From assembly GCA_963776765.1 (NCBI GenBank), contig CAVZOK010000003.1, positions 224,247 through 248,246 of the forward strand: a stretch of 24,000 nucleotides of DNA. The letters run 5' to 3'. The translations under genes and the position numbers were made by a program. Numbering within the stretch: the stretch's first letter is position 1; each line of letters opens with the position of its first letter. The DNA comes from Candidatus Sulfomarinibacteraceae bacterium. Its GTDB lineage: Bacteria > Acidobacteriota > Thermoanaerobaculia > Thermoanaerobaculales > Sulfomarinibacteraceae. Shown in pieces: positions 6,960 to 24,000 of the stretch. The notes below the pieces were generated by a model that saw only the letters and a program-made list of their open reading frames with translations, was not told where the DNA came from and ran no database searches.

Positions 6960-6981
6960 CAATAGCACTCCTCAAAACGAG

Positions 6982-8282: not shown

Positions 8283-9419
8283 TTAAGGCTCTTCGCCCCT
8301 GATCAGGCGCTCGACCAACGCTGGGAACCATGAGCCGTCAGGCACCTGGATCTTCCACCCGTTGACAAAGTAGGTCGGGGTCGCAGAAACGCCCATGACC
8401 TGGCCGAGGTTCAACTGCTGGTGAACGGCATCAATCGACGGCGGACGTAAATAGCATTCCCGGAACGCACCCTCGTCGAGCCCGCGTCCAACGATGAAAT
8501 CAACCGATGTCCCGGTAACGAGGGCAACCTCCATCTCCCGTTGCAGGTCGTAAAAGGTCTCCTTGAACGGAATCAGTGCCTGAGGATCCTGGAGTGCCAC
8601 ACACCACGAAGCACAGGCAGCACGAAACGCCCATGGGTGGATCGTGGTCAGGGGGTAGCTCACCATCCCGTGCCGCACAAAACCGGCATTCTTCTTCAAC
8701 ACCATGTTGATAATGGGCCACTTACCCTTGCAAGCTGGACACTCGAGATCGGAGAACTCAACAATATCGACGGCCGTACTGTCGCCGGCTTTGGTATCCC
8801 ACACCACGACGTCGTTTTCCGCCAACAGACGCCTCCGATAGGCAACCGGATCCTCGTCGAGAGGCATTTCGGAAGCCATCACCAGATATTTTCCGTCGGC
8901 CGTAACCGCCGCCTGGCGCCGGTACGATCCATATCCGCTGTCGACGTTCAGATAGAAGGGAATCAGGGCGCCAGGACGTCGCGGACCGGCGTCCCACTCG
9001 ACCTGGACCTTCATCCCCATACTCGACTTGAGGGCTTCAGGCAAGAATTTAGCCAGGAAAACGCGCAGGGCCTCAGGCCCGGCACCGGCTGACTGGAACG
9101 GTGGAAGTTCACCGACACTTCCAAGCCAGATCGTGTTGGCGCTTTCATCGACCAGCATGGTCGGCTTACCCGTCAAGAGCTGGCTCGCACAGGTTCGCGC
9201 TATCTCGACAAAGCGGTAGGAGCCCGAGGGGGTGTGGAATCTGGTGTTCGAAACAAGCTGATAGTTCGAGTTCGGATACCAGGCGAGGGCACGCTGAACA
9301 AAACGCATGGCCTTCGGTGCCGGTTCGGGCTTATCCTCATCCTGTGCATTGGCGATCACCGCCGTGGCCATCATCAATGCGAATACCATTCCAGAAAGTC
9401 GACGCAGTCTCGTTCTCAT
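8283..9419 (-). CDS. Exported DsbA-like thioredoxin-fold thiol:disulfide oxidoreductase with an N-terminal extra domain
   Basis: The signal peptide is MVFALMMATAVIANAQ. A CPAC active-site motif sits in the context EFSDLECPACKGKW. The C-terminal TPTYFVNG-type motif is typical of the DsbA family. Confidence 0.8.
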   Translation of the reverse strand: MRTRLRRLSGMVFALMMATAVIANAQDEDKPEPAPKAMRFVQRALAWYPNSNYQLVSNTRFHTPSGSYRFVEIARTCASQLLTGKPTMLVDESANTIWLGSVGELPPFQSAGAGPEALRVFLAKFLPEALKSSMGMKVQVEWDAGPRRPGALIPFYLNVDSGYGSYRRQAAVTADGKYLVMASEMPLDEDPVAYRRRLLAENDVVVWDTKAGDSTAVDIVEFSDLECPACKGKWPIINMVLKKNAGFVRHGMVSYPLTTIHPWAFRAACASWCVALQDPQALIPFKETFYDLQREMEVALVTGTSVDFIVGRGLDEGAFRECYLRPPSIDAVHQQLNLGQVMGVSATPTYFVNGWKIQVPDGSWFPALVERLIRGEEP

Positions 9420-9472
9420 TCAATACTCCCTGTGAAATTGTAGCAGCGGTCGGCGACCGGAACGGGACTTTA

Positions 9473-10528
9473 CTAGACCTTTTCCGCTTTTTCGGTCTCT
9501 GCCTGCACTGCCGGTGCTGCGTCGGCGGTCTCAGGAAGCAGGCCCAGGGCTTCCCGCAGTTTGAGTTCGATTTCGCCGGCCGCATCCGGATTGTCTTTCA
9601 GGAATTGCCGCGCGGCTTCACGCCCCTGTCCGATGCGGGTATCGCCGTAGGAATACCAGGAGCCGGATTTCTGTACGAGGCGGTGTTCGACCCCGAGGTC
9701 GAGCAGCTCCCCAGTATAGGAGATACCCTCTCCGTATAGGATGTCAAATTCGGCGACCTTGAAGGGAGCGGCTACTTTGTTTTTTGCAACTTTGGCCTTG
9801 GTCCGGTTTCCGATCACCTGGTCGCCCTGCTTGATCGAACTGGTTCGCCGGATTTCGATACGCACCGACGAATAGAATTTGAGGGCCCGGCCGCCAGTCG
9901 TGGTCTCCGGATTGCCGAACATCACGCCGATTTTCTCGCGCACCTGATTGATGAAGATCAGGCTGGTGTTCGATTTGGAAACGATGCCGGCGAGTTTGCG
10001 CAAAGCCTGTGACATGAGCCGCGCCTGCAGTCCCATCTGCGCGTCTCCCATATCACCCTCGAGTTCCGAACGGGGGACCAACGCGGCCACCGAGTCGATG
10101 ACGATGGCGTCCACCGAACCCGAACGGATGAGCGTCTCGGCAATCTCCAGAGCCTGCTCGCCGAAATCCGGTTGCGAGATCAAGAGGTCGTCGAGGTTGA
10201 CGCCGAGATTGCCGGCATACTCCGGATCAAGGGCGTGCTCGGCGTCAATGAACGCCACCAGCCCACCTGCCTTTTGGGCGTTGGCGATGATGTGAAGAGC
10301 AAGGGTGGTTTTCCCCGACGACTCTGGCCCGTAGATCTCAATCACCCGACCTCGCGGTATGCCACCGATGCCAAGCGCTGCGTCGAGGGTCAGCGAACCT
10401 GACGGAATCACATTGACCCGGATCCTTGGCTTTTCGCCCATTCGCATCAACGAGCCTTTGCCGAACTGGCGTTCGATCTGGCCGATTGCGGTCTCCAATG
10501 CCTTCATTTTGTCGGCTTTTTGGTTCAT
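9473..10528 (-). CDS. recA: Recombinase RecA
   Basis: The match is unambiguous: Walker [13 protein letters not shown], then [61 protein letters not shown]. It is full length at 351 aa with no intein. Confidence 0.98.
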
Positions 10529-10570: not shown

Positions 10571-10599
10571 ATCCTAGGGGGCGCAGAACCGAACGTCAA
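10571..10599 (-). promoter_or_regulatory. Putative sigma70 promoter of recA (TTGACG-17 nt-TAGGAT)
   Basis: The minus strand reads cTTGACGttcggttctgcgcccccTAGGATggtc, with an exact 17-nt spacer. It lies about 40 nt upstream of the recA ATG. The -35 box overlaps the stop codon of the upstream gene. Confidence 0.35.
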
Positions 10600-12839
10600 G
10601 ATCCGGGTAGTCGGAGCTCGAAAGCGAGGTCAGAGATGACGACCCCGAGCTCGCGAGAGTCGGCCGCTCCATCATCCGCCGGCCGGTATACGTCGGAGAG
10701 GATTTCTACCTCGAGGCGACCATCAACCGAATCGCCAGGCAGCACATCAAGCCCGTAGTCAGCCGGAAAAGGTCCAATTTCGAATGGTCTGGCGGCGTGG
10801 CGTCCAGCAATTCGGACCTCGGTCCGCGCCGCGGTTGGACGTGGCGCCCACATTCTGAGATGGAGTCGGCCAGTCGTCGCCGGCAGCCGCAGGACCGCGC
10901 GTGGTCCCAGCCACACCCCTTCCCCCGCCCCGGGAAAATGCTCGGCGTCGTAAGCGCCCTCAACCTCGATCCGCATCGCCTCCCTCTGCCAGGGGTGACT
11001 GATCGCGCTCGCCCAGGAAGAGCCCTGGTTCGGCGCCCGGATTTCGAATAACTGCACCGCCAACGGTCTCGAGTCGCCGTCGCCAGGTGAATAGTCCTGC
11101 CGCCTTCTGAACACCAGGTCCGACACCCTACCCGTGGCCGCAGGTGGCAGCCGCAACCATAGCCGTTGATCGTCGGACCTGCCGTCGATCGTCGCCACGT
11201 CCTCGCCGTCGAACGTTACGATCAACGGTTCTGGACCTGGAGCCGGACGCAACGCGACCCCGATCTCGGTTCCAGCTGCTAGCGGCGGAATTGCCAGCTC
11301 CGCCCCAGGTGCGCCCCAAATGAACCAGCGGCCATTCGGCGTTTGCTCCCGTGGCCACCAACCACTGATCGGCAGTGCTGGGTCTTCGATCAACCATGCC
11401 TCTAGAAAACGTTGTTGGGTCAAAGGATAGAGTGCGTCCGAAACCCCACCCCAATAGCGTTCGTGACCGCGTATTCCGTCCGGATAGAAATGGCGGTGAA
11501 CAGTCGCGACGACCCACGCTCCCTCGATCGCGGACCACGGCTCGGGGTCCCATGGCGAAAGAACTCGCGGCGGTGTGGGCTCGCCACGCCACTCAAGCAG
11601 GTGCCAGAGATAGGAGGCAAATGGATGGAGCTCCGACTCCACTACAACAGTCCGTCCCGAGCTCAACGCTTCTTCCCGGGCACGGGTCACCGCCCGCCAC
11701 GCCGGTAGCTTCGTCGTATGTTGCTCTTCAACCAGGGGCACACTCCCGGCGCCAAGCCATCCCACCATGAGGAGAAGACCCGCGCAACCTGCTGCTGGTG
11801 GCAAGGTTGCCGCCGCTCCAGCGATCAACGGTGCAAGCGCCATCTGTACTCCAACCGCGTAGCGGCCGGTCGTTCGGTTCTGCATCCACACGAGCTGTGA
11901 CACCGCAACCACCAAAACCAGAGCCCACAGAATCGCGCCTCGCCGCCCGACCCGGCGCGCCCAGACAACGATTCCAATCGCCGCGGTCAGGAGCAGAATG
12001 GTCGCCGGCAGGACCCCTCCCAGCCCCTTGACAAGGCCCAGGTCTCCGTAGCCACCGAGGTTTCCGACGAGACGAGAAAAGTGACGTTGCGAGTGGGCCA
12101 GAAACGGTGCAACAAAGGCACTCCAGCCGCCCTCAGCCCGGGCCATCAAAAAAATCGAAACCGCAATAGCGGCCCCTCCCGCCACCAACCCGGACACCAA
12201 CCGCCGGATTGGCCGAACTACCCACACCACACCGAGCCACAACGCAGCCAGCACTGGAAGGAGATTCGGACGAATCAGAAATGACGCAGTCACGAGCAGC
12301 GTGAAGGTAGTGATCCGCCGGCCTCGGAGGCCGCCGACCGCAATAGCCACAGCACCGAGCGCAAGGACCGACGCGGCGGTCGAGGAAAAACCGCGTACCG
12401 AATAGAGCCACGGCCCAGGGGCTGCCAAAACGACCAGCGCCGCAGCCACCGCGATAGCGGGCGGCGCCAGCCGCCGCCCGATTGCCGCCAGAACCCACAG
12501 GGCAGCAACCGCGAAGGCGGCGGATGCAATCTGCAGGGCGCGCAGCGGATCGCCCACAACGGGTGTCAGCAGGTGGCCGATCGCAAGCCAGCCTGGAAAA
12601 CCGGGCGGATGTGGGAAGTGGGCCGCAAGGTCAAAGTTCAGAATTCCGCGTGCGAAGAGAGTTTCGTCCCACTCCCAGGGGCCGTTTGCGAGGAACGCGA
12701 ATCGGGAGACAAAAACCAACAGCGCCGCGCCTACGGTCGCTATCGCATCCAGTTTCCGGTTTGGCAGACGAAACAGGAGCAAAGCCCGAAGAGCTCCCCG
12801 GATAAGCCGAACCTCCGCATGAATGGGTTTATCGGTCAT
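10596..12839 (-). CDS. GT-C-fold glycosyltransferase-like membrane protein (PMT/ArnT-like N-terminal half) with a large C-terminal extracytoplasmic domain
   Basis: There are about 11 TM segments in the first 400 aa. The first-loop motif GPWEWDETLFARG resembles the DE motif of GT39/GT83 enzymes (FDEVHFGKF). The C-terminal ~340 aa are soluble and not recognisable. An ATGA overlap with the upstream gene lies at 12836-12839. Confidence 0.65.
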   Translation of the reverse strand: MTDKPIHAEVRLIRGALRALLLFRLPNRKLDAIATVGAALLVFVSRFAFLANGPWEWDETLFARGILNFDLAAHFPHPPGFPGWLAIGHLLTPVVGDPLRALQIASAAFAVAALWVLAAIGRRLAPPAIAVAAALVVLAAPGPWLYSVRGFSSTAASVLALGAVAIAVGGLRGRRITTFTLLVTASFLIRPNLLPVLAALWLGVVWVVRPIRRLVSGLVAGGAAIAVSIFLMARAEGGWSAFVAPFLAHSQRHFSRLVGNLGGYGDLGLVKGLGGVLPATILLLTAAIGIVVWARRVGRRGAILWALVLVVAVSQLVWMQNRTTGRYAVGVQMALAPLIAGAAATLPPAAGCAGLLLMVGWLGAGSVPLVEEQHTTKLPAWRAVTRAREEALSSGRTVVVESELHPFASYLWHLLEWRGEPTPPRVLSPWDPEPWSAIEGAWVVATVHRHFYPDGIRGHERYWGGVSDALYPLTQQRFLEAWLIEDPALPISGWWPREQTPNGRWFIWGAPGAELAIPPLAAGTEIGVALRPAPGPEPLIVTFDGEDVATIDGRSDDQRLWLRLPPAATGRVSDLVFRRRQDYSPGDGDSRPLAVQLFEIRAPNQGSSWASAISHPWQREAMRIEVEGAYDAEHFPGAGEGVWLGPRAVLRLPATTGRLHLRMWAPRPTAARTEVRIAGRHAARPFEIGPFPADYGLDVLPGDSVDGRLEVEILSDVYRPADDGAADSRELGVVISDLAFELRLPGS

Positions 12840-15607
12840 CGCCCGCGCCTCGGCTCTCCGACGAGCACGTCATGTATCGCTTGTTGTAGATCGTGTTCGA
12901 GCACCAGAGAAGAAATCTCCTCGGTGCGCCTTGCCTCGTCATATCCATGACTACAGTCAGCGTTAGGGACCTGTGCCATTGTCCTCAATTCGATACAGGC
13001 GCCGTCGTCCAACGAACCGTCTCCCTGCAGGAAGAGGTGTGTCGAGTTGCGCCAACATCCGTACTCCCCCACTACAGGTCGTCGCACGTCTTCACCGAGG
13101 AGGTTGCGACCGACAAATGCGTAGGGGGTTGGATCGACCCCAAGCAGGGCGAGAAGGGTCGGCGCGACATCCGCGTGGCCGGCGGGCGCGGTCTGCTCGC
13201 CCCGCAACGGATCAACACCCGGGAGCTTGATGAACAGGGGGATCTCCTGGCTCAAGTACCAACCCGCCGCGTCGTTCGTCGCACCCATAGCAACCGCGAT
13301 CTCATTTCGCCATGGAAAGCCGGCGTCATGGTCACCCCAGATCGCAATCACGGTATTTTCGCCAAGCCCCTCACGCTCAAGAGCGGCCACGAAAGCTGCC
13401 AGAGATGAATCGAAGAAACGCATGGTGTGGAGGAAATTGCCAAACGGAGTGCCATCCCAGATGCCGACATCAAGTTCCTCGAGGTGGGCCGGAAAGCCGT
13501 CGAAGGGATGGTGCAGCGAGAGGGTCAGAAGGTAGGCCGCGAACGGCTGTGCGCTGGTTGCCAGCCGGCGGGCGGTCTGCTCCAGGAAGTCACGATCCGA
13601 AAGGCCCCAGCCAACCTGCTCGCCCCCTTCAAAATCTTCAACAAAGAGGTTTCGCTGGTAGCCGTACGCGGCATGAGTCTGGCGACGATTCCAAAAAGCG
13701 CCTTCGTAGGGCACCGCAGAAAGAGTGTGGTAGCCACGTTCTCCAAGTGCCTCGGCGATTCCAGTGAAATCGTTGGATGCATACCTGAAGGCCGCAGCCC
13801 CTCCCGCCATCGGCAAGAGCGAAACCTGGGTTGCGAGTTCACTGTCAGAGGATCGGCCCTGGCCGGTCTGATCGGTAACGTTTGAAAACCACAACGCTTC
13901 TTCCGCCCACCCATTGAGGAACGGCGTTACTTCGCTGCCGCCGATCTCCAGGCCGACCACGAATGCCTGCAGGCTTTCCACCTGCACCATGACAAGATTG
14001 GCACCATCTGCAGCCGCAAAAGATATCCCAGCTCCCGCTCGCTGCGACGCCCGTTCGCGGAACCACGCCGCGACCTCATCGAACTGCTCAGGTTCGAGCT
14101 CGCGATGAATCACACCCCTGGCAACTGCACGGACACCGTCAACGGTGTGGAGGTTGAGCACCCCTACGTTCTGGGCCACAGTCACCCGGTGGAAGACCTG
14201 AATCAGGAGGTTTGGCGGTGTCAGGGCGAGATATGTAGCTGCCAAACTTCCGACGATGGTCAGTGTCAAAAGGACGGCGACGACTCCCCGTAACTGCCGC
14301 TGACCGGAGCTCCGCCGCAAGCGATCAGCCACTAACACGAGGACCACGCCAGGAAGGAGATCGAGCCACAACCAGGCGTCACCAGCCACGAGGAGTTCGC
14401 GGATACTCGCCTTGACCTGACCAAGCTGGCCGACGCCTGCAATGGCGGTCGCCGCCGGCAGATCGCCGAAGAATCGAAGGTAGATCGAATCCGCCCACAG
14501 AACGAGGGTGGCGCCCGCCACGAGGCCCCAACATGCCCATCCTCGGAATCTCTCCGGCAACACCCGCGTGAGAAGCACGAGAACTGACGCACCGCCCACG
14601 GCCAACATCCATCCGGTCGTCGAAAGGGCGGCATCACACTCCGAGAGCACGATGGCCTGTTTGACCGACAACGCGCTCACGCACCACCCGATATCTCCGA
14701 TCGAGAAAAGAGCGACCAGCGACCGCAGGCCTCCAAATCGCCACGTCGACACCGCAACGCCACCCGCACAGAGAACCAGGAGCGACCACCAGAATCCATT
14801 CGCCAAGGGGTCAGGAATCACCAGCACCCGGGACGTGGGCAGCGGTTCCGGGGCGCGCTCAGAAAACCAGCAGACGCCCTCCTCCACCAGATCCCACTGC
14901 AGGTGCCAGAGGCCCGGTCGATCAGGTGCCACGACAACGACTTCAAGGGCCACCGTCTCCCCGCTGCGAACCGCAGTGGGGAGGGAGGTGCGCCGTCCCT
15001 CCCAATAGACACCCTGTCCTTTCGGGCGGATGCCTTTCCCCTCTCGGCCGAGCCAGTGATACGCGGCCGCAACAAACCCGTTGGCGGGCCAGGTCCTGCT
15101 GCCATCGTTATGCAGGACCAGTTCCACCACCGACGCCGAACCGGCCATCATCACCCGCGAGGCCGATGCTTTGAGAACTGTAAAGGCTCGACCTGCAAAT
15201 ACTGACACCAGAACCGTCTCAGGCTCTGTGTCATCGGCTTCCGAAAGCCATCGAACTCCATCCTGGACGACATCCCAACGCAAAAGGTAGTCCCCGGGCG
15301 TTCGTGGCGCCCCAACGGAGGCCACCAGCTCGATGCTGGAGCCAGGCGGTACGATCTCGGGCAGCGGGGAGCGAAGGCCATCCCAGACAACAACCCCGCC
15401 TTCAGTATCCATCCAGTGGTACGAAACTGCGAAGCCATCCGCCGAAGACCATGTCAAGGGACCATCGTTGACTATGACGATCGGAATCGAGGTTTCAGAT
15501 CCCGCTTCGAGCGAAGGTGAGATTGTTTGCTCGACAACCGTCAGCCCTTCGGCCGCGCCCACCGAAATCCAGGACAGCAGAATTGCTGTGACCGCGATCC
15601 TATTCAT
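12836..15607 (-). CDS. LtaS/MdoB-like sulfatase-family (alkaline-phosphatase superfamily) transferase with N-terminal signal peptide, two tandem Trp-rich Ig-like repeats, a polytopic TM block and a C-terminal catalytic domain
   Basis: The catalytic-domain motifs are NLVMVQVESLQAF, GQGRSSDSELAT and VIAIWGDHDAGF. About six TM helices occupy the middle. Two ~120-aa repeats at the N-terminus share WDVVQDGVRWLSE / WDLVEEGVCWFSE. Confidence 0.8.
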   Translation of the reverse strand: MNRIAVTAILLSWISVGAAEGLTVVEQTISPSLEAGSETSIPIVIVNDGPLTWSSADGFAVSYHWMDTEGGVVVWDGLRSPLPEIVPPGSSIELVASVGAPRTPGDYLLRWDVVQDGVRWLSEADDTEPETVLVSVFAGRAFTVLKASASRVMMAGSASVVELVLHNDGSRTWPANGFVAAAYHWLGREGKGIRPKGQGVYWEGRRTSLPTAVRSGETVALEVVVVAPDRPGLWHLQWDLVEEGVCWFSERAPEPLPTSRVLVIPDPLANGFWWSLLVLCAGGVAVSTWRFGGLRSLVALFSIGDIGWCVSALSVKQAIVLSECDAALSTTGWMLAVGGASVLVLLTRVLPERFRGWACWGLVAGATLVLWADSIYLRFFGDLPAATAIAGVGQLGQVKASIRELLVAGDAWLWLDLLPGVVLVLVADRLRRSSGQRQLRGVVAVLLTLTIVGSLAATYLALTPPNLLIQVFHRVTVAQNVGVLNLHTVDGVRAVARGVIHRELEPEQFDEVAAWFRERASQRAGAGISFAAADGANLVMVQVESLQAFVVGLEIGGSEVTPFLNGWAEEALWFSNVTDQTGQGRSSDSELATQVSLLPMAGGAAAFRYASNDFTGIAEALGERGYHTLSAVPYEGAFWNRRQTHAAYGYQRNLFVEDFEGGEQVGWGLSDRDFLEQTARRLATSAQPFAAYLLTLSLHHPFDGFPAHLEELDVGIWDGTPFGNFLHTMRFFDSSLAAFVAALEREGLGENTVIAIWGDHDAGFPWRNEIAVAMGATNDAAGWYLSQEIPLFIKLPGVDPLRGEQTAPAGHADVAPTLLALLGVDPTPYAFVGRNLLGEDVRRPVVGEYGCWRNSTHLFLQGDGSLDDGACIELRTMAQVPNADCSHGYDEARRTEEISSLVLEHDLQQAIHDVLVGEPRRGR

Positions 15608-15638: not shown

Positions 15639-16044
15639 CTAGTTGACCGGATAGCGCTCGTCGTAGAGCTGGATCACGGCGTCCGTGATGACGGCAGAAT
15701 TCGCGATATGTACCAGCGGTTGCGATTCAAGCATGAATATCGCGTCAAATCCGTTGTGCCACCAAGAGCTGATTCTCGAGCTGCCTGATGGCGTCAACCG
15801 ATGCAACAGTTCTCTGGGCGTTGAGCTGTTGGGTGAGCTCTGCGACACGGCTCTGCATCTTTTCGATTTGATCACTTCTCTCTGTAGACCATTCTTCGAG
15901 AATTTGAAGTTGCCTTTGGCCTTCCTTGACTGTCTTGATCGCCCGCTCTGTATCCAGGAAACCAACATTTCGGGCCACGACTGGAATCGCAGCAAACGTC
16001 GCAACAAGAGTTAGGATCCCACGCACGAATACTTGCATCGCCAC
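15639..16044 (-). pseudogene. OmpH/Skp-like periplasmic chaperone gene split across two reading frames (frameshift near 15745-15755)
   Basis: Frame A (16044->15745) encodes a signal peptide, then VGFLDTERAIK and a long helical arm, and ends ...LENQLLVAQRI*. The +1 frame continues (G)FDAIFMLESQPLVHIANSAVITDAVIQLYDERYPVN*. This matches the Skp C-terminal beta/DIT-type motif (E. coli: [29 protein letters not shown]). The RBS GAGGAGGTG precedes the ATG at 16044. Confidence 0.6.
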
Positions 16045-16167: not shown

Positions 16168-16185
16168 CCGGCACACTCCGTGCAT
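16168..16185 (+). promoter_or_regulatory. Sigma54 (-24/-12)-like promoter upstream of the plus-strand operon
   Basis: cCGGCACactccGTGCAt compares with the consensus TGGCAC-N5-TTGCW. The invariant GG (16170-16171) and GC (16182-16183) are at the canonical 12-nt offset. The element is about 80 nt upstream of the ATG at 16266 and in the correct orientation. Confidence 0.3.
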
Positions 16186-16265
16186 GTTAGAGTTCGGAAT
16201 GACTCACCATCAACCCTGAGTTCACAGCAAATGGAGAGCAGAAACTGACTGAGAGTGCCGATGTT

Positions 16266-17096
16266 ATGCAGACCATGAAACGATTGTTGCTGATGTTCTC
16301 GGTGGCAGCCCTGGCGGTCCTCCTGGTGGGATGTGCATCGAGTGATCCGAGCACCTCGCAGGCGCCACCCGAGACGCCAGAAAAGAAACCCCCAGCCACC
16401 GTCGGCCAGGAGCGCAACGAGGGGGGGGGCGGTGGTGGACAGTCCGGCGCCGGCGAGGGCGGACAGGGCGGTGGCCAGGGCTCTGAAGGAGGGTCGGAAG
16501 CCGGGCACAGCGAGGAGGGGGGCAGCGGGGCCTCTGGAGGTCAAGAAACGGCAGCCGGTAGCCAGGGCGGCGGCTCGACCGACAACTCCGGCGGGCACTC
16601 CGGCACCCAACCGCCCGCCGGATCGCCGGCCACGGGCAACGAAGCGGCGGCGGCACTCGAGCAACAGCTCGAAGACGCGCTCCAGGAGTTCGACCGGCGA
16701 ATGCGTGAAGAAATGGAGCGCCTGGCTGAAGAGACCACGGATGCCGAACGAGCGGGATCCAGTGCCACCGGCGTCGGAACAGGCACCGGGCGTGGCTCGA
16801 GCGGCGGTGAGACAAGCGAGTCTTCACCATCTGGCGAAACCGAATCCGGCGGCAGCTCGGGCGAAGCTACGGAAGAGGGCGAGGACTCCGCTGGCTCCGT
16901 CGGTGGATCGGGCCCGGGCGGAGAAGGATCGAGCCGGGCGCCGGCGGACGTCGGCGACGGTGCGGACGACGACATCGTCGCTCGCCAGCTTCGAGAGGCA
17001 GCCATGGCCGAGGAAGATCCCGAGCTGAGAGAGAAGCTGTGGGATGAGTATCGACGCTACAAGTCGTCGCTTGGCGGCTCGAGCAAGGACGGATAG
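16266..17096 (+). CDS. Lipoprotein with a long Gly/Ser/Glu-rich disordered region and a helical C-terminal module
   Basis: A signal peptide and lipobox (LLVGC) are present. About 200 aa of low complexity follow (GGGGGGQSGAGEGGQGGGQGSEGG...). The ordered C-terminus reads DDDIVARQLREAAMAEEDPELREKLWDEYRRYK. The next gene starts 2 nt after the stop. Confidence 0.7.
   Translation: MQTMKRLLLMFSVAALAVLLVGCASSDPSTSQAPPETPEKKPPATVGQERNEGGGGGGQSGAGEGGQGGGQGSEGGSEAGHSEEGGSGASGGQETAAGSQGGGSTDNSGGHSGTQPPAGSPATGNEAAAALEQQLEDALQEFDRRMREEMERLAEETTDAERAGSSATGVGTGTGRGSSGGETSESSPSGETESGGSSGEATEEGEDSAGSVGGSGPGGEGSSRAPADVGDGADDDIVARQLREAAMAEEDPELREKLWDEYRRYKSSLGGSSKDG
16421..16429 (+). repeat. G9 homopolymer inside the first gene of the operon (codons 52-55)
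   Basis: This was read directly as gaGGGGGGGGGc. It is the longest homopolymer I noticed in the window. Confidence 0.95.
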
Positions 17097-17098
17097 CG

Positions 17099-18367
17099 AT
17101 GATCGCCTCAAGCCGGAGAGCCCGCCTGATTCTGGTGACGTCGACGCTGACCCTTGTTTTCTTCAGTTTCGGCTGCGCCTCACAGTCGGCCTCGGACCGT
17201 TCGACCCCGGCCATCCAGGCGGCCCAGGAGATTCCGGTCGAGGAGCTCCTCGACGTCGGCGTCACGATCTTCGATCCCGGCCTCCCACCGGAGGGCCAAC
17301 CGGTGCCGGACGACGTGTTTCCGGAGCTTCGCAAGGCCGAGGCCAGGTTTCAGGCAATCCAGCTCATGGAGACCATGCAAAGCACCGGCCAGTGGGGCGC
17401 CGTTCGGGTCCTTCCAGCCGGGCACGGCACCACCGACCTCAGGGTATCGGGCACGATTCTGCTTTCCACCGGAATGAAGATGGCCCTCGACGTCCGGGCG
17501 GTCGACGCGAGAGGAAAAGTCTGGCTCGAGAGGCGTTACCGGGCCCAGGCCCATGAGGCTGTCTATCTGGGGAGCGAGGTTTCGGAGCGCGACCCCTTCC
17601 AGTCGATCTACAACGAGATCTCCAATGATCTCCTGGACGCGAGGAGCAAGCTCCGCGCAGGTGAGCTGCAGGAAATCCGACAGGTATCGAGGCTGAAGTT
17701 CGCCGCTAATCTCGCGCCGGAACCTTTCGAGGACTACCTGACAACCAACAAAAAGGGGCGGATCAGGGTCAAACGCCTGCCGGCGCACGGAGACCCGATG
17801 ATGGCGCGCGTCGATGCCATTCGGGCGAGCGAAAACCTCTTCATCGACACCCTCGATCAGAATTTCGCGGCCTTTTTCGCAAAAATGGAAGCACCCTATG
17901 CGAGCTGGCGGAAGTACACCTATGAAGAGGAAAAAGCCTACAAGGCCCTCAAACGCAAGGCCTTGACACAGCAAATTCTCGGCGGATTGGCGATCCTCGG
18001 CGCCGCCCTCGCAGACCCCGGTTCTCCGGTCGCTTCCGTCGCACGCGACGCCGCCATGATCGGCGGCATGGCCGCCATCCACGCCGGCATCTCCACCTCC
18101 AAAGAGGCCAAGATCCATGCCGAGGCAATCCGCGAGCTGGCGGCCTCGGTGGAGACCGAGCTCGAGCCGATCGTGATCGAGGTCCACGGCCAGACCCTGC
18201 GCCTCTCCGGCTCCGCGGAAACCCAATACCAGGAGTGGCAGCAGCTGATGCGGGAGATCTGGGCCACTGAAACAGGACTGCCGGTGGATCCAAACCTGCC
18301 CGGCGGGCCGACCATTTACAGCGGACCGGAGGCTGGATCATCCATCGAACCTCCGGAGCAGCGGTGA
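17099..18367 (+). CDS. Probable lipoprotein of unknown family with C-terminal glycine-zipper-like hydrophobic segments
   Basis: The signal peptide ends FFSFGC, a lipobox-like sequence. The conserved-looking core is FPELRKAEARFQAIQLMETMQSTGQWGAVRVLP. The Gly/Ala-rich segments are ILGGLAILGAALA and AAMIGGMAAIHAGI. The next gene starts 3 nt after the stop. Confidence 0.7.
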   Translation: MIASSRRARLILVTSTLTLVFFSFGCASQSASDRSTPAIQAAQEIPVEELLDVGVTIFDPGLPPEGQPVPDDVFPELRKAEARFQAIQLMETMQSTGQWGAVRVLPAGHGTTDLRVSGTILLSTGMKMALDVRAVDARGKVWLERRYRAQAHEAVYLGSEVSERDPFQSIYNEISNDLLDARSKLRAGELQEIRQVSRLKFAANLAPEPFEDYLTTNKKGRIRVKRLPAHGDPMMARVDAIRASENLFIDTLDQNFAAFFAKMEAPYASWRKYTYEEEKAYKALKRKALTQQILGGLAILGAALADPGSPVASVARDAAMIGGMAAIHAGISTSKEAKIHAEAIRELAASVETELEPIVIEVHGQTLRLSGSAETQYQEWQQLMREIWATETGLPVDPNLPGGPTIYSGPEAGSSIEPPEQR

Positions 18368-18370
18368 GCG

Positions 18371-19474
18371 ATGGGTGACGGTAACGACAAACCAAAGCTA
18401 CGGCCGCCGCCGCGAGTACCCGCAGCAAGCACCTCTGATCTCGGAGCCGACTCCAACAGGGGTCGTCAAACTCCAGGCCCCGTTCGAACAGCCGTACAGG
18501 CAGCCGTCGTGACCGCTATGGTCCTCGGGCTGATCGGCGTGTTCGTCATTCTTCCGCGCTGGCAGGATGGACGCCAGACGAGGATTGCCATCGATACTGA
18601 GGCCCAACAACCCGTAGCGACGCCCCAAAGTCCGGTTCCAACCGACGAGGACACAACGCCGGTTTCGGACGCCACCATCTCAGAACCGAGTCCCGTGCCA
18701 ACAGCTACCCAGACCCCTCGTTCGGTCCCGGCCCGGGTGCAAAATACTCCGCGACGCCAACCGTCGACCGCGGAACGGGAGTACATCGAGGCCATGTCCA
18801 TGGGCCTTGCGGCCCTCGAAAACCGTCAGTGGCTGGCCGCGCAAGATGCCTTCGCACGGGCCTCTCGGCTGCGACCAGATGCGCCCGAGGTCGCCGACGG
18901 TCTCGCCCGGGCGAGGGCCGGTCAGCGCCGCGAATCGGTCGCTGACAGCCTCCGTCGAGCGCGCGAATTCGAAGCGAACGAGGGCTGGCACGAGGCAGAG
19001 AAAATGTACTCGGCGGTATTGGCAATCGATCCCGAGTCCGCGCCGGCGCTTGACGGCGCGAAAAGGGCGAAAATACGGGCCAACCTCGACGAAAAGCTCG
19101 AATTCCACCTCGCCAACCCCGGCCGTCTCTCGACCGAGCCCGTCTTCGATGACGCCACCTCCTGCTTGGAGGAGGCTCTGGAAACGGTGCCGAGCGGCCC
19201 ACGTCTCGAGGGACAGATTGCGCACCTCGAGGCCCTTTTGAAGATCGCGTCAACGCCGGTGGCGGTAGTGCTGGAGTCCGACGCCTCGACCGAGGTCCTG
19301 GTCTACCGGGTTGGCCGCCTGGGAACCTTCACGCGGCGTGAGCTCAGCCTCAAGCCCGGCACATACACGGTGGTCGGCAGCCGCAGCGGGTATCGCGACG
19401 TCCGCCTGCAGCTTGTTGTGGTACCCGGATCGCGGCCGGAAACGCTCGTCGTACGGTGCACGGAAAGCCTATGA
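18371..19474 (+). CDS. Single-pass membrane protein: short cytoplasmic N-terminus, TM, Pro/Thr-rich linker, TPR-like helical repeats, C-terminal PEGA-like beta domain
   Basis: The TM is AVQAAVVTAMVLGLIGVFVIL. TPR-like repeats include ALENRQWLAAQDAFARASRLRPDAPEV and ANEGWHEAEKMYSAVLAIDPESAPAL. The C-terminus is VAVVLESDASTEVLVYRVG...LKPGTYTVVGSRSGYRDVRLQLVV. The stop overlaps the next start in an ATGA at 19471-19474. Confidence 0.7.
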   Translation: MGDGNDKPKLRPPPRVPAASTSDLGADSNRGRQTPGPVRTAVQAAVVTAMVLGLIGVFVILPRWQDGRQTRIAIDTEAQQPVATPQSPVPTDEDTTPVSDATISEPSPVPTATQTPRSVPARVQNTPRRQPSTAEREYIEAMSMGLAALENRQWLAAQDAFARASRLRPDAPEVADGLARARAGQRRESVADSLRRAREFEANEGWHEAEKMYSAVLAIDPESAPALDGAKRAKIRANLDEKLEFHLANPGRLSTEPVFDDATSCLEEALETVPSGPRLEGQIAHLEALLKIASTPVAVVLESDASTEVLVYRVGRLGTFTRRELSLKPGTYTVVGSRSGYRDVRLQLVVVPGSRPETLVVRCTESL

Positions 19475-21897
19475 GTATCGTTTTTTCATTCGAGATCGGC
19501 ACCGAGCGGCGTGTCTACACCTCGGACGACATGCCCCTGAGTCTGGGCGGCGCTGCCTGCCATCTTGCCCTTCCCGGCCTCTCAGAAGAAGGCCCTGTTG
19601 CGTTCCTGGGCCATGACGGGGGAGAACTTTTTATTCAACCCTCGGAGGATCGATCGACTTCGGAGCCAGTGACCTGCAACGGAATTCCCCTGGCCGCATC
19701 TCGTTGGCTCGGCGACCGCGACGAGGTCGGCGTCGGTAGCCATCGTCTACGGTGCGAAATCAGTTCCGACGCCGTTCGTCTCGTGCTGGTACAAAAAGCC
19801 TCTCGGGAGGTGAAACCTCGTGGGGCGGTCGTCTCCGGGGCCCCACAAACCTCAGTTTCGGGTCGGGCGATCACGCCCACCGATTTCAAGCCGCGATGGC
19901 AGTCGCCACCAGCCCGTTCCCGTTTCCGCATCCGTTCGCGTTCGCTGTTGATGATCGCTGCCGTCGTCCTGCTCGCTGCCGGCGCCTTTTTTGTCCTCAC
20001 GGCGCGAGCGGTCCGCATCGAGACCAGCCCCACGGCCGAGCAACTCGATGTTCGTGGCAGTTGGCTGACGCCCAAGTTCGGCGACAGCTACCTCCTCCGC
20101 CCAGGGAGCTACACCGTGACGGCCGAAGTCGAGGGCTACCGCAGCCTTTCGGAGACTCTCGAGGTGAACAGCGACACACCGTCGGTGGTCGGCTTTGTTT
20201 TCGAACCCCTCGGAGGTCTTCTGACCATCATTTCGAGCCCGGTGGACGGCGCCGAGATCATCATCGATGGGGAGGCAGCGGGCACGACCCCGGCCTACGA
20301 GATCGAACTCGGGGCGGGTAAGCACATGGTCGAGGTCGCAGCACCGCTCCACCTCCCCTACCAGACCACCGTCGTTTTCGAACCCGGTGAACCGCCTCGC
20401 GAGCTGGCGGCCGAGCTGGTTCCCAACTGGGCCCCGCTGACCGTTGCCACAGTTCCCGCAAATGCGACTGTCTTCCTCAATGGAACCGCCGTCGGATCGA
20501 CTCCCCTCGAGCATCGGGTCGACGCCGGTGAGTTTCTGCTCGAGCTTCGTCGACAGGGTTTTAAAAATTTCTCCAGGGCCGGTCGCGCCATTGTTGGTGA
20601 AGCCGTCGACCTTGGGCTCATTCGGCTTGTCCCGGTGGACGGCCGTCTCGCTGTGGCCTCGGAACCGACTGGAGCCACTGTGACAATCAACGGAGTATTC
20701 CGCGGCACCGCGCCGCTCGAACTCGACCTCACTCCTGACAACACTTACCAGGTGACGGTCTCGATGGCCGGGCGTAGCACGTTCGCCACTGCGGTCGAGA
20801 TCTTTTCGGGTCGACGATCGGACGTTCGGGCCGAACTCGAAATGCTCTCGGGCGAGGTCGCCGTGACCTCCCAGCCGCCCGGCGCCCAGCTGCTGATTGA
20901 CGGCGTACCTTCGGGCACCACCGACCAGATCCTGGACCTTGAGGCGCGTCCCCACCAGATCGAGATCCGGCTTGACGGCTACGTTCCCTATCGCACGTCT
21001 CTCACCCCAGAGCCCGGGCTTCCGCAGGCAGTACACGCCGTGCTCAAAGAGGAAGGCCCGGCCGGGCTACCAGCAAACATCAAAAGCCCTCAAGGCCTCG
21101 AGCTGGCGCTGGTCGGGCCCGGACGCTTCACCATGGGTGCCGCCCGCCGTGAGCCGGGCCGCCGCGCCAACGAAGTCCTGCGCGAGGTCGAACTGACGCA
21201 AGCCTTCTACCTCGCAGTGCGCGAAGTCACAAACAAAGAGTTCCGGGAATTCCGATCGGGTCACCGGTCTGGCTCCGTCCGCAATTTCAATCTCGAGATC
21301 GACCACCACCCGGTCGTCAATATCACCTGGAACGATGCGGCGAAATACTGCAACTGGCTCTCGGAACGCGCCGGGCTGCCCCAGGTCTACGTCGAGAGGG
21401 GCGGCACGATGGTCGCTCGCACGCCGCTCCCGTCAGGCTTCCGGCTGCCGACCGAAGCCGAGTGGGCGTGGGCCGCCCGCTATCCGGATGCGGCCGACGC
21501 CCGCAAGTACGCCTGGGGCGATTCGCTGCCCGTGCCCGTCGGCGCCGGGAACTACGGCGATTCCACGGGCTCATCGGTGCTCGGCGGCGCCATCCCCGGC
21601 TACCGCGATAACCATGGCGCCACCGCTCCGGCGGGCAGCTATCAGCCCAACCCACTCGGGCTCTACAATCTCGGCGGCAACGTATCGGAGTGGATGCATG
21701 ACGTGTATGCGGTGACGCCCTCTCCGCCGAACGAGCTCGCGCGCGATCCCGTCGGACCCTCCGAGGGGGCGTACCATGTCATCAGAGGCTCGAGCTGGAT
21801 GGACACGAACACGACCGAACTCAGGCTGAGCTACCGGGACTACGGCGACTCGGCGCGGCCCGATCTCGGTTTTCGGATTGCGCGCAGCGCGCAGTAA
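19471..21897 (+). CDS. FHA-like (cytoplasmic) - TM - 5x PEGA - FGE-sulfatase/SUMF1-like domain protein
   Basis: I chose the ATG at 19471 because of the ATGA coupling. The N-terminal ~108 aa have an FHA-like pattern (LSLGG..CHLALPG...NGIPL..SRWLGDRDEVGVGSHRL). An RSRFRIRSRS stretch precedes the TM at 19942-20004. Five PEGA-like repeats lie at about 20010-21050 (for example GAEIIIDGEAAGTTP, NATVFLNGTAVGSTP, GATVTINGVFRGTAP, GAQLLIDGVPSGTTD). The FGE-like domain at 21097-21894 contains HPVVNITWNDAAKYCNWLS, RLPTEAEWAWAAR, LYNLGGNVSEWMHD and GFRIARS. Confidence 0.85.
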   Translation: MSIVFSFEIGTERRVYTSDDMPLSLGGAACHLALPGLSEEGPVAFLGHDGGELFIQPSEDRSTSEPVTCNGIPLAASRWLGDRDEVGVGSHRLRCEISSDAVRLVLVQKASREVKPRGAVVSGAPQTSVSGRAITPTDFKPRWQSPPARSRFRIRSRSLLMIAAVVLLAAGAFFVLTARAVRIETSPTAEQLDVRGSWLTPKFGDSYLLRPGSYTVTAEVEGYRSLSETLEVNSDTPSVVGFVFEPLGGLLTIISSPVDGAEIIIDGEAAGTTPAYEIELGAGKHMVEVAAPLHLPYQTTVVFEPGEPPRELAAELVPNWAPLTVATVPANATVFLNGTAVGSTPLEHRVDAGEFLLELRRQGFKNFSRAGRAIVGEAVDLGLIRLVPVDGRLAVASEPTGATVTINGVFRGTAPLELDLTPDNTYQVTVSMAGRSTFATAVEIFSGRRSDVRAELEMLSGEVAVTSQPPGAQLLIDGVPSGTTDQILDLEARPHQIEIRLDGYVPYRTSLTPEPGLPQAVHAVLKEEGPAGLPANIKSPQGLELALVGPGRFTMGAARREPGRRANEVLREVELTQAFYLAVREVTNKEFREFRSGHRSGSVRNFNLEIDHHPVVNITWNDAAKYCNWLSERAGLPQVYVERGGTMVARTPLPSGFRLPTEAEWAWAARYPDAADARKYAWGDSLPVPVGAGNYGDSTGSSVLGGAIPGYRDNHGATAPAGSYQPNPLGLYNLGGNVSEWMHDVYAVTPSPPNELARDPVGPSEGAYHVIRGSSWMDTNTTELRLSYRDYGDSARPDLGFRIARSAQ

Positions 21898-21910
21898 TCG
21901 GAGGAGAGAC

Positions 21911-22126
21911 ATGAAGCCGATCAAGCGACCCATCATCACAGGCCTCCTCGCGGTCCTGGTTTTCGCATCGGCGCTGACAGCGGGCTGGATCACAGCCGAC
22001 GCCGGCGCACCGCCACAGGAGACCACGGAGCCGCCCGAGTCGGCGAGCGAAGAGCCTCTTCCTGATTTCCAACCGTCGGAACGCCTCCCCGCTGACAGCG
22101 CGGTCGCGTTCCCGACCGACATTTGA
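21911..22126 (+). CDS. Small (71 aa) exported or single-pass acidic Pro/Glu-rich protein
   Basis: GGAGGAG lies 4 nt upstream of the ATG at 21911. The N-terminal hydrophobic segment is IITGLLAVLVFASALTAGWI. The C-terminus reads ...SERLPADSAVAFPTDI. The gene is wedged between operon genes. The track start at 21878 lacks an RBS. Confidence 0.5.
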   Translation: MKPIKRPIITGLLAVLVFASALTAGWITADAGAPPQETTEPPESASEEPLPDFQPSERLPADSAVAFPTDI

Positions 22127-22133
22127 GGCCGTC

Positions 22134-22970
22134 ATGCGTCGCTCAGATTCAGTCGACTTCGTTTTTCAGCTCACCTCGCTGATTGTGGCCCTGATCATCG
22201 TCCATGCGTTCTATGTGACCGTGGTCCGGCCTCGTGCCGACATCTTCTCGGCCGAACAGGCCTCCCTGATGGCGGCCGATCCCGAATATGTCCAACAGCG
22301 GTCGGTGTGGGTCATCGTGCGCGACTTCGAGCAGGAGGCGTGTTTCGTACTCATGTTGTGGGCGATGGCGATCATGGCATCCAAGGGCCTGACGACTGCC
22401 CGTGAGAACCAACTCCTCGAGGCCGATCTGGTGCCGGTGGCGGACGGCGTGCGGATTCTTGCCGAGGACTCGCGCGAATACGCGCGACAGATCGAGGCAC
22501 TGCCCACAAACCAACAACGGCTTTTGTTGCCGCGAGTGGTTTTGGCCGCGTTGCGCCGGTTCGGCGCGACCGGCAGCATCCAGGACGCCTCCGACACCGC
22601 TCACAGCACGGCAGAAACCGAGGCGGAGCGTCTCGACTCCGAGCTCGCGATGGTGCGCTACATCGCCTGGGCGATTCCCTCGATCGGTTTCATCGGCACC
22701 GTGCGCGGTATTGGAGCGGCCCTCGGCCAGGCCCACCGGGCGGTCGAGGGGGATATCACCGGAGTGACGCGGAACCTCGGCGTCGCATTCAACTCGACCT
22801 TTGTCGCCCTCCTGATTTCGATCATCCTGATGTTCCTCCTGCACCAGCTCCAGCTGCGGCAGGAGCGACTGGTCCTTGATACCGAGGCCTACGTCGATAC
22901 TCACCTCATCACCCACCTCCAAGCCGGCCCGGCGGCGTCCGATCGTTCGCAGAGAACCGGGGCGAGCTGA
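22134..22970 (+). CDS. MotA/TolQ/ExbB-family proton-channel protein
   Basis: The C-terminal signature is AIPSIGFIGTVRGIGAALG...GVAFNSTFVALLISIILMFLL, which corresponds to the MotA_ExbB TM pair. There are two N-terminal TM segments and a ~100-aa cytoplasmic loop. GAGG lies 5 nt upstream of the ATG. Confidence 0.85.
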   Translation: MRRSDSVDFVFQLTSLIVALIIVHAFYVTVVRPRADIFSAEQASLMAADPEYVQQRSVWVIVRDFEQEACFVLMLWAMAIMASKGLTTARENQLLEADLVPVADGVRILAEDSREYARQIEALPTNQQRLLLPRVVLAALRRFGATGSIQDASDTAHSTAETEAERLDSELAMVRYIAWAIPSIGFIGTVRGIGAALGQAHRAVEGDITGVTRNLGVAFNSTFVALLISIILMFLLHQLQLRQERLVLDTEAYVDTHLITHLQAGPAASDRSQRTGAS

Positions 22971-22974
22971 GCTC

Positions 22975-24000
22975 GTGAGACTCGTCGCTCTGAAGCTGGT
23001 TGATTCCGGGCTCCAGTTCGTGAGCCCGAGGGGCAAGCTGTCACAGCCGAGTCCCGGCCTTGCTCTGATAGATGGTCACGAGCTCGCCGTGGGAGTCGAT
23101 GCGGAAAGCGGCGCGCGTCTCAATCCCCGCCGTCTTCACAGCCGGTTCTGGCAGGACCTCGGCACCGCCCCGCTCGGTCGCCCATTCCCTAACTATCTGC
23201 GAACGGCCGATCTCGCCCATGCGCATTTGAAATCCGTGTGGGATGCTGACGGCTCGGACGCCGGAGAGGTCATCGTCGCGGTGCCCGGCGTATATACCGA
23301 CGATCAGCTCGCGTTGCTCCTCGGGATCGCCCGCGAGCTCGCGATACCGGTTCGTGGCCTGATCGACGCCGCGGTCGCTGCCGCTGCCGATCGCGAGCTG
23401 CGGCCGTCGGTTCTTCACCTCGACATCCACCTCCACCGTGCTGTCCTCACCGAGCTCGAACACGGTCATGAAATTGTCCGAAAGACCGTCCGCGCTGAAC
23501 CCCGGGTTGGTCTCCTCGCTCTCCGGGACGTCTGGGCCCGGGTCATTGCCCAAACCTTTGTTCGAGCAACCCGATTTGATCCACTTCATGTCGCGGCCAC
23601 TGAACAGGATCTTTACACTCAACTGGCAGACCTTCTCGAGGTGCTTACAGACAGGGACTCGACCGAGGTTCGCATCGCATCGGGTGGCCACGAACACACC
23701 GTCAAGCTGGACCGTGCACGCATCATCGACGCCGCGATTTCCACTTACGACAGTCTGTCTTCTCTCGTCAACGATTATGAGCGCCCGAATGACACAACCC
23801 TTCTGCTCAGTCACCGTGCCGCAGCCTTGCCGGGGCTCGTCGACCATCTCGAAGAGCACACCGAATCATCAGTCGTGGTCTTACATCCAGCGGCCGCGGC
23901 CAGCGGCGCCCTTGCCCACGCCGACCTCATCCGGTCACGAGGCCCCTCCGTGCCCTTTGTCACCCGCCTTCCAGGCCTCGATGCGAGACCACCGGGGCCG
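22975..24000 (+). CDS. Hsp70/actin-fold (ASKHA) family protein, 3' end outside the window; not in the supplied ORF track
   Basis: My own translation from the GTG at 22975 is open for all 342 codons to the window end. It reads MRLVALKLVDSGLQFV... (compare IGIDLGTTNS), then EVIVAVPGVYTDDQLALLLGIARELAIPVRGLIDAAVAAA (compare [43 protein letters not shown]). It starts 4 nt after the MotA-like stop. The 23041..23859 minus-strand ORF in the track is its antisense shadow. Confidence 0.7.
   Translation, partial: MRLVALKLVDSGLQFVSPRGKLSQPSPGLALIDGHELAVGVDAESGARLNPRRLHSRFWQDLGTAPLGRPFPNYLRTADLAHAHLKSVWDADGSDAGEVIVAVPGVYTDDQLALLLGIARELAIPVRGLIDAAVAAAADRELRPSVLHLDIHLHRAVLTELEHGHEIVRKTVRAEPRVGLLALRDVWARVIAQTFVRATRFDPLHVAATEQDLYTQLADLLEVLTDRDSTEVRIASGGHEHTVKLDRARIIDAAISTYDSLSSLVNDYERPNDTTLLLSHRAAALPGLVDHLEEHTESSVVVLHPAAAASGALAHADLIRSRGPSVPFVTRLPGLDARPPGP

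Follow-up and report, generated by a model that had tools for sequence, protein, structure and literature searches.

The closest described counterparts of the system treated here were predicted in silico in a 2025 study in Mol Biol Evol, the available text of which reports a tolQ-like gene accompanied by a heterologous pair of genes for transmembrane (TM)-tethered "transpore-helix-vWA" proteins, with no tolR or exbD (PMC12204202). As far as that text goes, the evidence consists of gene neighbourhoods and AlphaFold 3 models only, the models putting the Asp of the transpore helix within a ring of Thr residues, and the account covers the motor core alone, starting from an Idiomarina loihiensis seed and extending mostly over Proteobacteria and Verrucomicrobia (PMC12204202). 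The present analysis concerns a gene cluster in a stretch of 24,000 nucleotides (the window) from a Candidatus Sulfomarinibacteraceae bacterium (assembly GCA_963776765.1, contig CAVZOK010000003.1, positions 224,247 to 248,246 of the forward strand). The seven genes of this cluster that fall within the window, g1-g7, are on balance probably part of a conserved nine-gene operon encoding an envelope-spanning machine, which is built around a 5:2 motor of the MotA/TolQ/ExbB type driven by the proton-motive force (PMF). Compared by description with the motors in the accessible text of PMC12204202, the locus has in common with them a tolQ-like gene, the lack of tolR, exbD and motB, paired vWA genes, the helix Asp, the Thr ring and the absence of an SHLS motif, whereas the core treated here forms part of a fixed set of nine genes that occurs in Acidobacteriota and Desulfobacterota-type genomes as well. 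A search of that text, which did not extend to kinases, found no Hsp70-like, DnaK or FGE/sulfatase partners; its sole "FHA" match is the outer-membrane protein name FhaC, and its mentions of "lipoprotein" concern Tol-Pal or the type IX secretion system (T9SS). The literature searched for the full domain combination yielded only PMC12204202 and general domain catalogues, with no experimental study, and the fixed nine-gene architecture appears to be undescribed there. An initial annotation of the window had suggested a possibly new machine, a description that appears to hold for the nine-gene set but not wholly for the motor core, which is of a kind already predicted in PMC12204202.

The motor assignment starts from g6, a multi-pass protein of 278 amino acids (aa) that matches Pfam MotA_ExbB (PF01618) at 1e-13, with 51.6 bits against a cut-off of 22.9. 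Using phmmer, g6 aligns to E. coli TolQ, its closest solved structure, and both pore-lining Thr positions (equivalent to T145 and T178 of TolQ) are matched and invariant among distinct orthologues (68/68). The gene is the most conserved of the module (Table 1), and its product is presumed to be the pentameric subunit of the 5:2 motor. Every syntenic locus continues after g7 with two genes, g8 and g9, both of which lie outside the window; contigs with close g7 homologues carry genes for an LtaS-like sulfatase and Skp/OmpH upstream, as in the window, then the seven genes, and then two more. The proteins g8 (363 aa, vWA Pfam match at 2.9e-9) and g9 (335 aa, weak vWA match at 0.01) are paralogous, with 24-31% mutual identity. 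In each of them a short, basic stretch in the cytoplasm leads into a single TM helix bearing the motif FSLSFLDxICCGFGAIILL, after which come about 125 residues scored as coiled-coil-like and, last, a periplasmic vWA domain. The Asp of the helix, which reads SFLD with no SHLS, is invariant among distinct orthologues (65/65 for g8 and 47/47 for g9), and the metal-ion-dependent adhesion site (MIDAS) D.S.S (DxSxS; Asp and two Ser) is likewise intact in 65/65 g8 and 47/47 g9 orthologues. None of the nine proteins has an ExbD-family match, and the gene content of the loci includes no ExbD/TolR/MotB gene. On its sequence features the g8/g9 helix is proposed as equivalent to that of ExbD/TolR, with no claim of family membership, and the lack of an ExbD/TolR/MotB-type partner recorded in the initial annotation is an artefact of the window edge, because this putative functional equivalent sits directly downstream, fused to a vWA domain.

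Conservation of the module was followed from g7, whose relatives were sought by scanning species-representative genomes with a 20-sequence alignment from the window's own clade (A1), the order of g1-g9 then being read by tblastn against the fetched loci (designated L001 and so on). The g7 relatives fall in 207 species, the best 80 of these matches all being metagenome-assembled genomes (MAGs), and the order g1-g2-g3-g4-(g5)-g6-g7-g8-g9 is kept in dozens of loci, spread over Acidobacteriota (Sulfomarinibacteraceae and relatives), Gammaproteobacteria (Steroidobacteraceae and others) and Desulfobacterales. Flanking genes differ by lineage and include no further module-wide gene, such as a phosphatase or an effector; the nine-gene module is therefore conserved as a unit. 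Synteny of homologues in other genomes, set beforehand as a test of the operon, extends over at least three phyla with unrelated flanks, a recurrence beyond what chance would give, and the earlier proposal of a real, conserved, PMF-linked trans-envelope module was right. As to the extent of the operon, the seven genes recognised in the window are the first of nine in total, the syntenic relatives placing g8 and g9 past its edge.

Copies in MAGs labelled Nitrospinota and Thermodesulfovibrionia cluster with the Desulfobacterota type. The module proteins of L052, from a MAG labelled Nitrospinaceae, are 93-97% identical to those of L043, from a Desulfobacterales MAG, which points either to very recent transfer or to contig mis-binning and calls for caution with MAG taxon labels; because of this near-identity three robust clades are counted here, Nitrospinota and Thermodesulfovibrionia being excluded. 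In about 13-15 gammaproteobacterial loci the module is framed by two further lipoprotein genes on the operon's strand (L027 832-1539, L028 13570-14367 and equivalents), of which one precedes g1 and the other follows g9; the Acidobacteriota and Desulfobacterota-type versions lack them.

Two bitopic inner-membrane proteins, g3 and g4, accompany the motor, their genes overlapping by an ATGA in all eight loci with listed coordinates of open reading frames (ORFs), which represent all three clades (L001, L004, L023, L028, L043, L052, L066 and L069). The 367-aa g3 has a short cytoplasmic N-terminus, a TM helix at residues 44-62, a Pro/Thr-rich linker and a periplasmic part in which TPR repeats precede a C-terminal PEGA/CarboxypepD_reg-like beta-sandwich; the Pfam TPR and CarboxypepD_reg matches are weak for the window protein and clear for orthologues (TPR_2 at 4e-11). 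The g3 orthologues of many lineages reach 750-900 aa and carry an N-terminal Ser/Thr kinase domain (Pkinase at 5.5e-44 in L066, 2e-37 in L023 and 6e-28 in L027), which is missing both from the window clade, where g3 has 360-410 aa, and from Desulfobacterota-type forms of 433-542 aa. The 808-aa g4 combines a cytoplasmic FHA-like domain (about residues 1-105), a TM helix at residues 159-177 and a periplasmic array of PEGA/CarboxypepD_reg beta-sandwiches that ends in a C-terminal FGE-sulfatase (C-type-lectin-like) domain, with Pfam matches to PEGA (four copies, 1.8e-46) and FGE-sulfatase (7.5e-47). The profile of its N-terminus (A5) matches the FHA domain of Ki-67 at E = 4e-4 and those of EmbR, Rv0020c and EssC more weakly; the domain is divergent and without the GR and SxxH residues of phosphothreonine binding. 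The best NCBIfam match of g4 is GldK/PorK (TIGR03525; 113 bits, 2e-32, cut-off 350). In formylglycine-generating enzymes (FGE) the catalytic Cys pair lies within the last 80 residues, a stretch in which g4 has no Cys at all, and from this we infer that the FGE-like domain is a binding module rather than an enzyme. As a candidate formylglycine-generating enzyme g4 was thus rejected, the domain being there but the catalytic Cys pair absent.

The last protein that begins within the window, g7, is represented there by the first 342 of ~447 codons, full-length homologues having ~447 aa; it has no TM helix and is cytoplasmic. This part has no Pfam, NCBIfam or PADLOC match above threshold and no PDB sequence match, and a g7 profile gave non-significant PDB matches to Ssz1 (E = 0.45) and to FHA domains. 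The AlphaFold2 model of a full-length homologue, P0017 (81% identical to g7; predicted local distance difference test, pLDDT, 77), has as its top Foldseek matches the nucleotide-binding domains of DnaK, Ssz1 and BiP (E ~1e-16, probability 1.0), so that the Hsp70/actin fold guessed in the initial annotation is correct. Hsp70 proteins have a DLGGGT phosphate-2 loop and a GGxxRxP motif, and in g7 the corresponding positions read DLHLHR and SHRAAALPG. An Hsp70 chaperone by sequence was rejected for g7: Pfam HSP70 is absent even at E <= 10, the DLGGGT loop is replaced, and an FHA C-terminus takes the place of the substrate-binding domain.

This C-terminal, FHA-derived beta-sandwich, which lies mostly beyond the window, is Pfam FHA in 30/42 family members (best 4.8e-14), and members outside the window clade retain its SxxH and S..GT.VN motifs, which the window clade has lost; some Desulfobacterota-type loci have these motifs without a g3 kinase. 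The window's Sulfomarinibacter-like lineage is, to judge from these sequences, one that has lost both the g3 kinase and the canonical g7 FHA domain, so that interactions there would have to be phospho-independent. The presence of both in many relatives suggests phospho-regulation of the motor. The initial annotation had routed the cytoplasmic output of the machine through its FHA-like and Hsp70-like parts; both are there, but the direction may be the reverse, given the kinase on g3 and the FHA domain on g7 in relatives. At 50% identity the g7 family falls into 1944 clusters, and its members bear only "hypothetical" or "FHA domain-containing" as NCBI names. Residues ~30-75 of P0017 (window ~23062-23199) have a pLDDT below 50 and yet contain residues that are invariant in A1, namely R48, P51, H55, F58 and W59 (consensus RLxPRRLHSRFWQ). 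In the 42-sequence cross-phylum alignment A2 only P51 and W59 stay so. Instead of belonging to the Hsp70-like fold, the segment may serve as a docking motif that is disordered.

The remaining three proteins are exported. Standing at the head of the module in many loci, g1 encodes a 276-aa lipoprotein (lipobox LLVGC; mature part with an isoelectric point (pI) of 4.2 and 23% Gly) in which a long, disordered, acidic linker rich in Gly, Ser and Glu leads to a near-invariant C-terminus, DDDIVARQLREAAxxExDPELRxKLWxEYxxYK, kept across all three clades; Pfam, NCBIfam and PADLOC returned nothing above cut-off for it, only sub-threshold matches. The second lipoprotein, g2 (422 aa, lipobox FSFGC), keeps a constant position and has only sub-threshold matches in Pfam, NCBIfam and PADLOC and no PDB match by sequence or profile. 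Its C-terminal half is helical with glycine-rich GxxxG-type segments, and its AlphaFold2 model finds weak Foldseek matches to LptE (2.8e-4) and TolB (1e-3), which tentatively suggest an LptE/TolB-N-like fold for the N-terminal alpha/beta domain. The 71-aa g5, for which Pfam, NCBIfam and PADLOC hold no family, has a signal peptide, a mature part of pI 4.05, a variable acidic and Pro-rich linker that cannot be aligned between loci, and a conserved C-terminus, [FY]xP[ST]E.[IVL].AD..V.FP.DI. Most loci, in all three clades, have an ORF of this layout and C-terminal motif between g4 and g6, and g5 is accepted as a genuine gene because a small secreted protein with a conserved C-terminus recurs at this place in all of them. 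Hydropathy and sequence inspection agree with the localisations given in the initial annotation (two lipoproteins, two single-pass proteins, a protein with a signal peptide, a multi-pass channel and a soluble protein), and its domain guesses, namely PEGA, FGE-like, MotA/TolQ/ExbB channel, Hsp70 fold and FHA-like N-terminus, were largely right.

These parts can be assembled into a working model of the machine. A g8/g9 heterodimer would insert its Asp-bearing helices into the g6 pentamer, as ExbD and TolR do, and proton flow through g6 would turn or pull the g8/g9 stalk. The paired vWA heads, held out by the coiled-coil stalks, could reach the peptidoglycan or outer-membrane zone and grip an acidic ligand by means of the MIDAS metal, the best candidates for this ligand being the near-invariant acidic C-termini that secreted g5 and lipoprotein g1 present at the ends of disordered tethers; lipoprotein g2, with its possible LptE/TolB-N-like domain, may be a further partner of the heads. 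The translationally coupled g3 and g4 would form a periplasmic scaffold or sensor beside the motor. PilM, GspL and FtsA are examples of actin-fold scaffolds that attach to bitopic proteins of the membrane, and g7, with its Hsp70-like and FHA parts, may in much this way attach to the complex from the cytoplasm, together with the FHA-like domain of g4, and regulate or report its state. In many lineages, though not in the window's, this cytoplasmic layer would stand under the control of the g3-fused Ser/Thr kinase and a phosphothreonine-binding g7 FHA domain.

Most likely the net function is Tol-Pal-like, either coupling the outer envelope mechanically or keeping it under surveillance, and it is probably neither transport nor defence. 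With Tol-Pal (TolQRA-TolB-Pal-CpoB) the module has in common a TolQ-family channel, an Asp-bearing partner helix, one or more TPR proteins and lipoproteins in the operon, a possible TolB-N/LptE-like domain in g2 and a plausible role in coupling the PMF to the outer envelope; in contrast to Tol-Pal it has vWA periplasmic heads and cytoplasmic FHA and Hsp70-like parts. The mismatch with Tol-Pal, TonB-ExbBD and Zorya noted in the initial annotation was confirmed, since all three fail family tests, as does T9SS/GldK. Tol-Pal itself was rejected with 22.7 bits against a cut-off of 221 for TolQ (TIGR02796) and no TolR, TolA, TolB beta-propeller or OmpA-like Pal, and TonB-ExbBD with 20.1 bits against 135 (TIGR02805) and no ExbD or TonB domains.

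Several points weigh against the proposal of a nine-gene motor operon. In this genome the presence of g8 and g9 is deduced from relatives at 50-90% protein identity, all of which have both, and the carriers named in the searches are all MAGs, none of them cultured. The transpore helix of g8/g9 gives no Pfam ExbD match and no PDB profile match, so that homology to ExbD/TolR is not demonstrable; in hhalign comparisons with the N-termini of E. coli TolR and ExbD the Asp residues align, at a probability of at most 1%. The g2 model is of low confidence (pLDDT 55 overall, better for residues ~100-250), and g7, with its glycine loops replaced, possibly neither binds nor hydrolyses ATP. What the vWA heads grip, which membrane (inner or outer) carries the lipoproteins and what g7 does are likewise matters of inference.

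Against this stands, in the first place, a reading of the module as mainly a trans-envelope signalling pathway comparable to TagQRST-PpkA-Fha1, the switch of the Pseudomonas H1 type VI secretion system (T6SS), in which the motor only powers or gates a sensor: lipoproteins and the FGE-like domain would detect envelope damage, the kinase would phosphorylate, the FHA domain would read the mark, and the output machine would be encoded elsewhere. PpkA carries a vWA domain in the periplasm, and COG1262 corresponds to the FGE/SUMF1 group. The Pseudomonas pathway includes the outer-membrane lipoprotein TagQ, the COG1262 periplasmic protein TagR, the Ser/Thr kinase PpkA and the FHA protein Fha1 (PMC13584744), a domain vocabulary which it has in common with the module. 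The kinase-bearing operon relatives have the domain set that TagQRST-PpkA-Fha1-PppA joins into a sensor of envelope state, with their lipoprotein, FGE-like periplasmic module, bitopic Ser/Thr kinase on g3 and canonical FHA reader on g7. The T6SS pathway, however, has no motor, Hsp70-like protein or PEGA array, and the nine-gene module has no PppA-type phosphatase, TagST ABC transporter or T6SS genes, nor does the window lineage have the kinase. Phosphorylation cannot be the core function, because the kinase is absent from many otherwise complete loci, including the whole window clade and the 433-542-aa Desulfobacterota-type forms of g3. The conserved module moreover includes no phosphatase or transcription factor, and its most conserved genes are those of the motor parts g6, g9 and g8, all of which makes a primarily signalling function unlikely.

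Slightly less likely again is a machine for surface motility, adhesion or secretion of the Agl-Glt gliding or T9SS GldLM-GldKN type, in which the motor would move vWA adhesin heads, or a GldK-like ring of FGE domains, relative to the outer membrane. The gliding machinery Agl-Glt includes the vWA adhesin CglB, TPR proteins, lipoproteins and a TolQ-like motor, the accessible text of PMC12204202 suggests that vWA proteins linked to motors might serve in gliding, and GldK/PorK is the best NCBIfam match of the FGE-like domain of g4. With GldLM and the GldK/GldN ring the module has in common a 5:2-type PMF motor next to a periplasmic, non-catalytic protein of the FGE-sulfatase fold, but the GldK score falls far below its cut-off, the vWA domains are held on inner-membrane tethers, and the module lacks GldL, GldM, GldN, SprA, the TolR-like AglQ/S, an outer-membrane barrel, a secretin and an exported adhesin. 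T9SS (GldK/PorK) was accordingly rejected as an assignment, g4 being a TM protein rather than a lipoprotein; its FGE-like domain sits on an inner-membrane FHA-PEGA protein, not on a lipoprotein of the outer membrane.

A Zorya-type anti-phage or conflict system, in which a MotA-like motor senses envelope perturbation and signals to cytoplasmic partners, is very improbable: the weak ZorA similarity of g6 (E = 0.005), the repeated appearance, among the conflict systems that PMC7159879 catalogues, of FGE/FGS, vWA, FHA, PEGA, kinase and Hsp70 domains, and the patchy taxonomic spread with 93-97% identical copies in differently labelled phyla, which may be transfer or mis-binning, are set against core proteins with no significant PADLOC match beyond a generic kinase domain, a module with no nuclease, protease, TIR or other effector, the lack of g9 and g7 homologues in 72,556 plasmids and of a g9 homologue in 50,697 phage records, and one fixed chromosomal site in Sulfomarinibacteraceae, between LtaS/Skp and regulator/ligase genes (genomes at 50-90% protein identity), a pattern typical of vertically inherited housekeeping loci and not of defence islands. 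The defence-type reading offered in the initial annotation was abandoned on these grounds. Zorya (ZorAB with ZorC/D/E) resembles the module in its MotA-family channel, its long extended partner and its proposed envelope sensing, and differs from it in that the module has no ZorB peptidoglycan-binding domain and no ZorC/D effector and stands in a housekeeping-like genomic context. As an assignment Zorya was rejected with 13.9 bits for ZorA against g6 and no other PADLOC Zorya match.

The layout of the operon and of the genes around it is given in Table 1. The spacings from g1 to g7 are +2, +3, -4 (the ATGA overlap), 13 (preceded by GGAGGAG), 7 and 4 nt, and the ORF listing with codon check reproduced exactly the seven co-directional genes and junctions of the initial annotation. 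The lack of an internal terminator that it reported was also found here: 8 terminator-like matches turned up, with 5.2 +/- 2.4 expected and hence no enrichment, and none of them lies at a junction of g1-g7.

Table 1. Genes and other features of the nine-gene module and its surroundings in the window, with protein identity to the window-type protein across phyla
Feature	Position in window	Strand	Identity across phyla	Basis or description
Candidate sigma-54 (-24/-12) promoter	16170-16184	+		GGCAC-N6-TGCA, 82 nt 5' of the g1 start codon
g1	16266-17096	+		ORF listing, start/stop codon check
g2	17099-18367	+	about 40%	ORF listing, start/stop codon check
g3	18371-19474	+		ORF listing, start/stop codon check
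g4	19471-21897	+	37-40%	ORF listing, start/stop codon check
g5	21911-22126	+		ORF listing, start/stop codon check
g6	22134-22970	+	57-63%	ORF listing, start/stop codon check
g7	22975 to beyond 24000	+	31-39%	GTG start; frame still open at window end
g8			45-54%	outside the window
g9			52-63%	outside the window
Skp/OmpH-like chaperone gene	15639-16044	-		two reading frames, break near 15890
LtaS-type sulfatase/transferase	12836-15607	-		923 aa, N-terminal Ig-like region
ORF	10596-12839	-		747 aa, no Pfam match; 4-nt overlap with LtaS-type gene
RecA, DsbA-like thioredoxin, DedA/VTT protein	7286-10528
DsrM-like and DsrK-like gene pair	4417-6968	-		overlapping genes: NarI/DsrM-like membrane cytochrome b (316 aa), Fer4/CCG-domain DsrK/HdrD-like protein (534 aa)

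A promoter scan for sigma-70 found nothing. Upstream of g1, an Rfam search returned no element, and a candidate sigma-54 promoter lies within the 220-nt divergent intergenic region, on the strand that matches the operon. Its pattern is the sole match in the 24-kb window and arises at least once in 31/100 shuffles, so alone it is not significant; a motif of this type stands at the equivalent place 5' of g1 in the relative loci L001, L005, L008 and L009, and an NtrC-type sigma-54 activator is encoded near the operon in related loci. The motif probably accounts for the coordinate 16168 at which the initial annotation let the region begin. Only in Sulfomarinibacteraceae, the region 3' of g9 (L001 13505-17710) encodes an OmpR-type response regulator on the same strand and, on the opposite strand, a PAS-HTH_8 protein together with the NtrC-type activator, and through these the sigma-54-like promoter ahead of g1 may possibly be regulated in a lineage-specific way.

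Divergent from the operon lies the split Skp/OmpH-like gene, for which the L001 orthologue matches frame -1 with residues 1-96 and frame -2 with residues 86-172; it represents either a frameshift (pseudogene) or an assembly error, and splits of a similar kind are seen in L009 and L022. The LtaS-like gene adjoins the operon throughout Sulfomarinibacteraceae and not in other phyla. The DsrM-like/DsrK-like pair fits a sulfur-cycling, Sulfomarinibacter-like organism.

Beyond the motor operon itself, a bolder and more doubtful possibility is that the module stands for a new class of envelope machine, in which a TolQ-type 5:2 motor with vWA-headed Asp-helix partners substituting for ExbD/TolR would pull on the tethered acidic g5 and g1 peptides and be wired to a cytoplasmic Hsp70-fold/FHA layer and, in most lineages, to a Ser/Thr kinase. 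The known 5:2 ion-driven motors MotAB, ExbBD, TolQR, GldLM, AglRQS and ZorAB each opened a field, and the module adds to them one in which the inner "rotor" proteins terminate in vWA domains, made for metal-dependent adhesion, and which always comes with seven partners. Testable handles are offered by the invariant residues (Asp and Thr), by the MIDAS motifs and by the two near-invariant C-terminal peptides, which are the ligand candidates, and the lineages with and without the kinase/FHA layer offer a natural comparison. If the proposal is true, this would be the first proton-driven rotary motor coupled directly to eukaryote-like phospho-signalling, for mechanosensing of the envelope.

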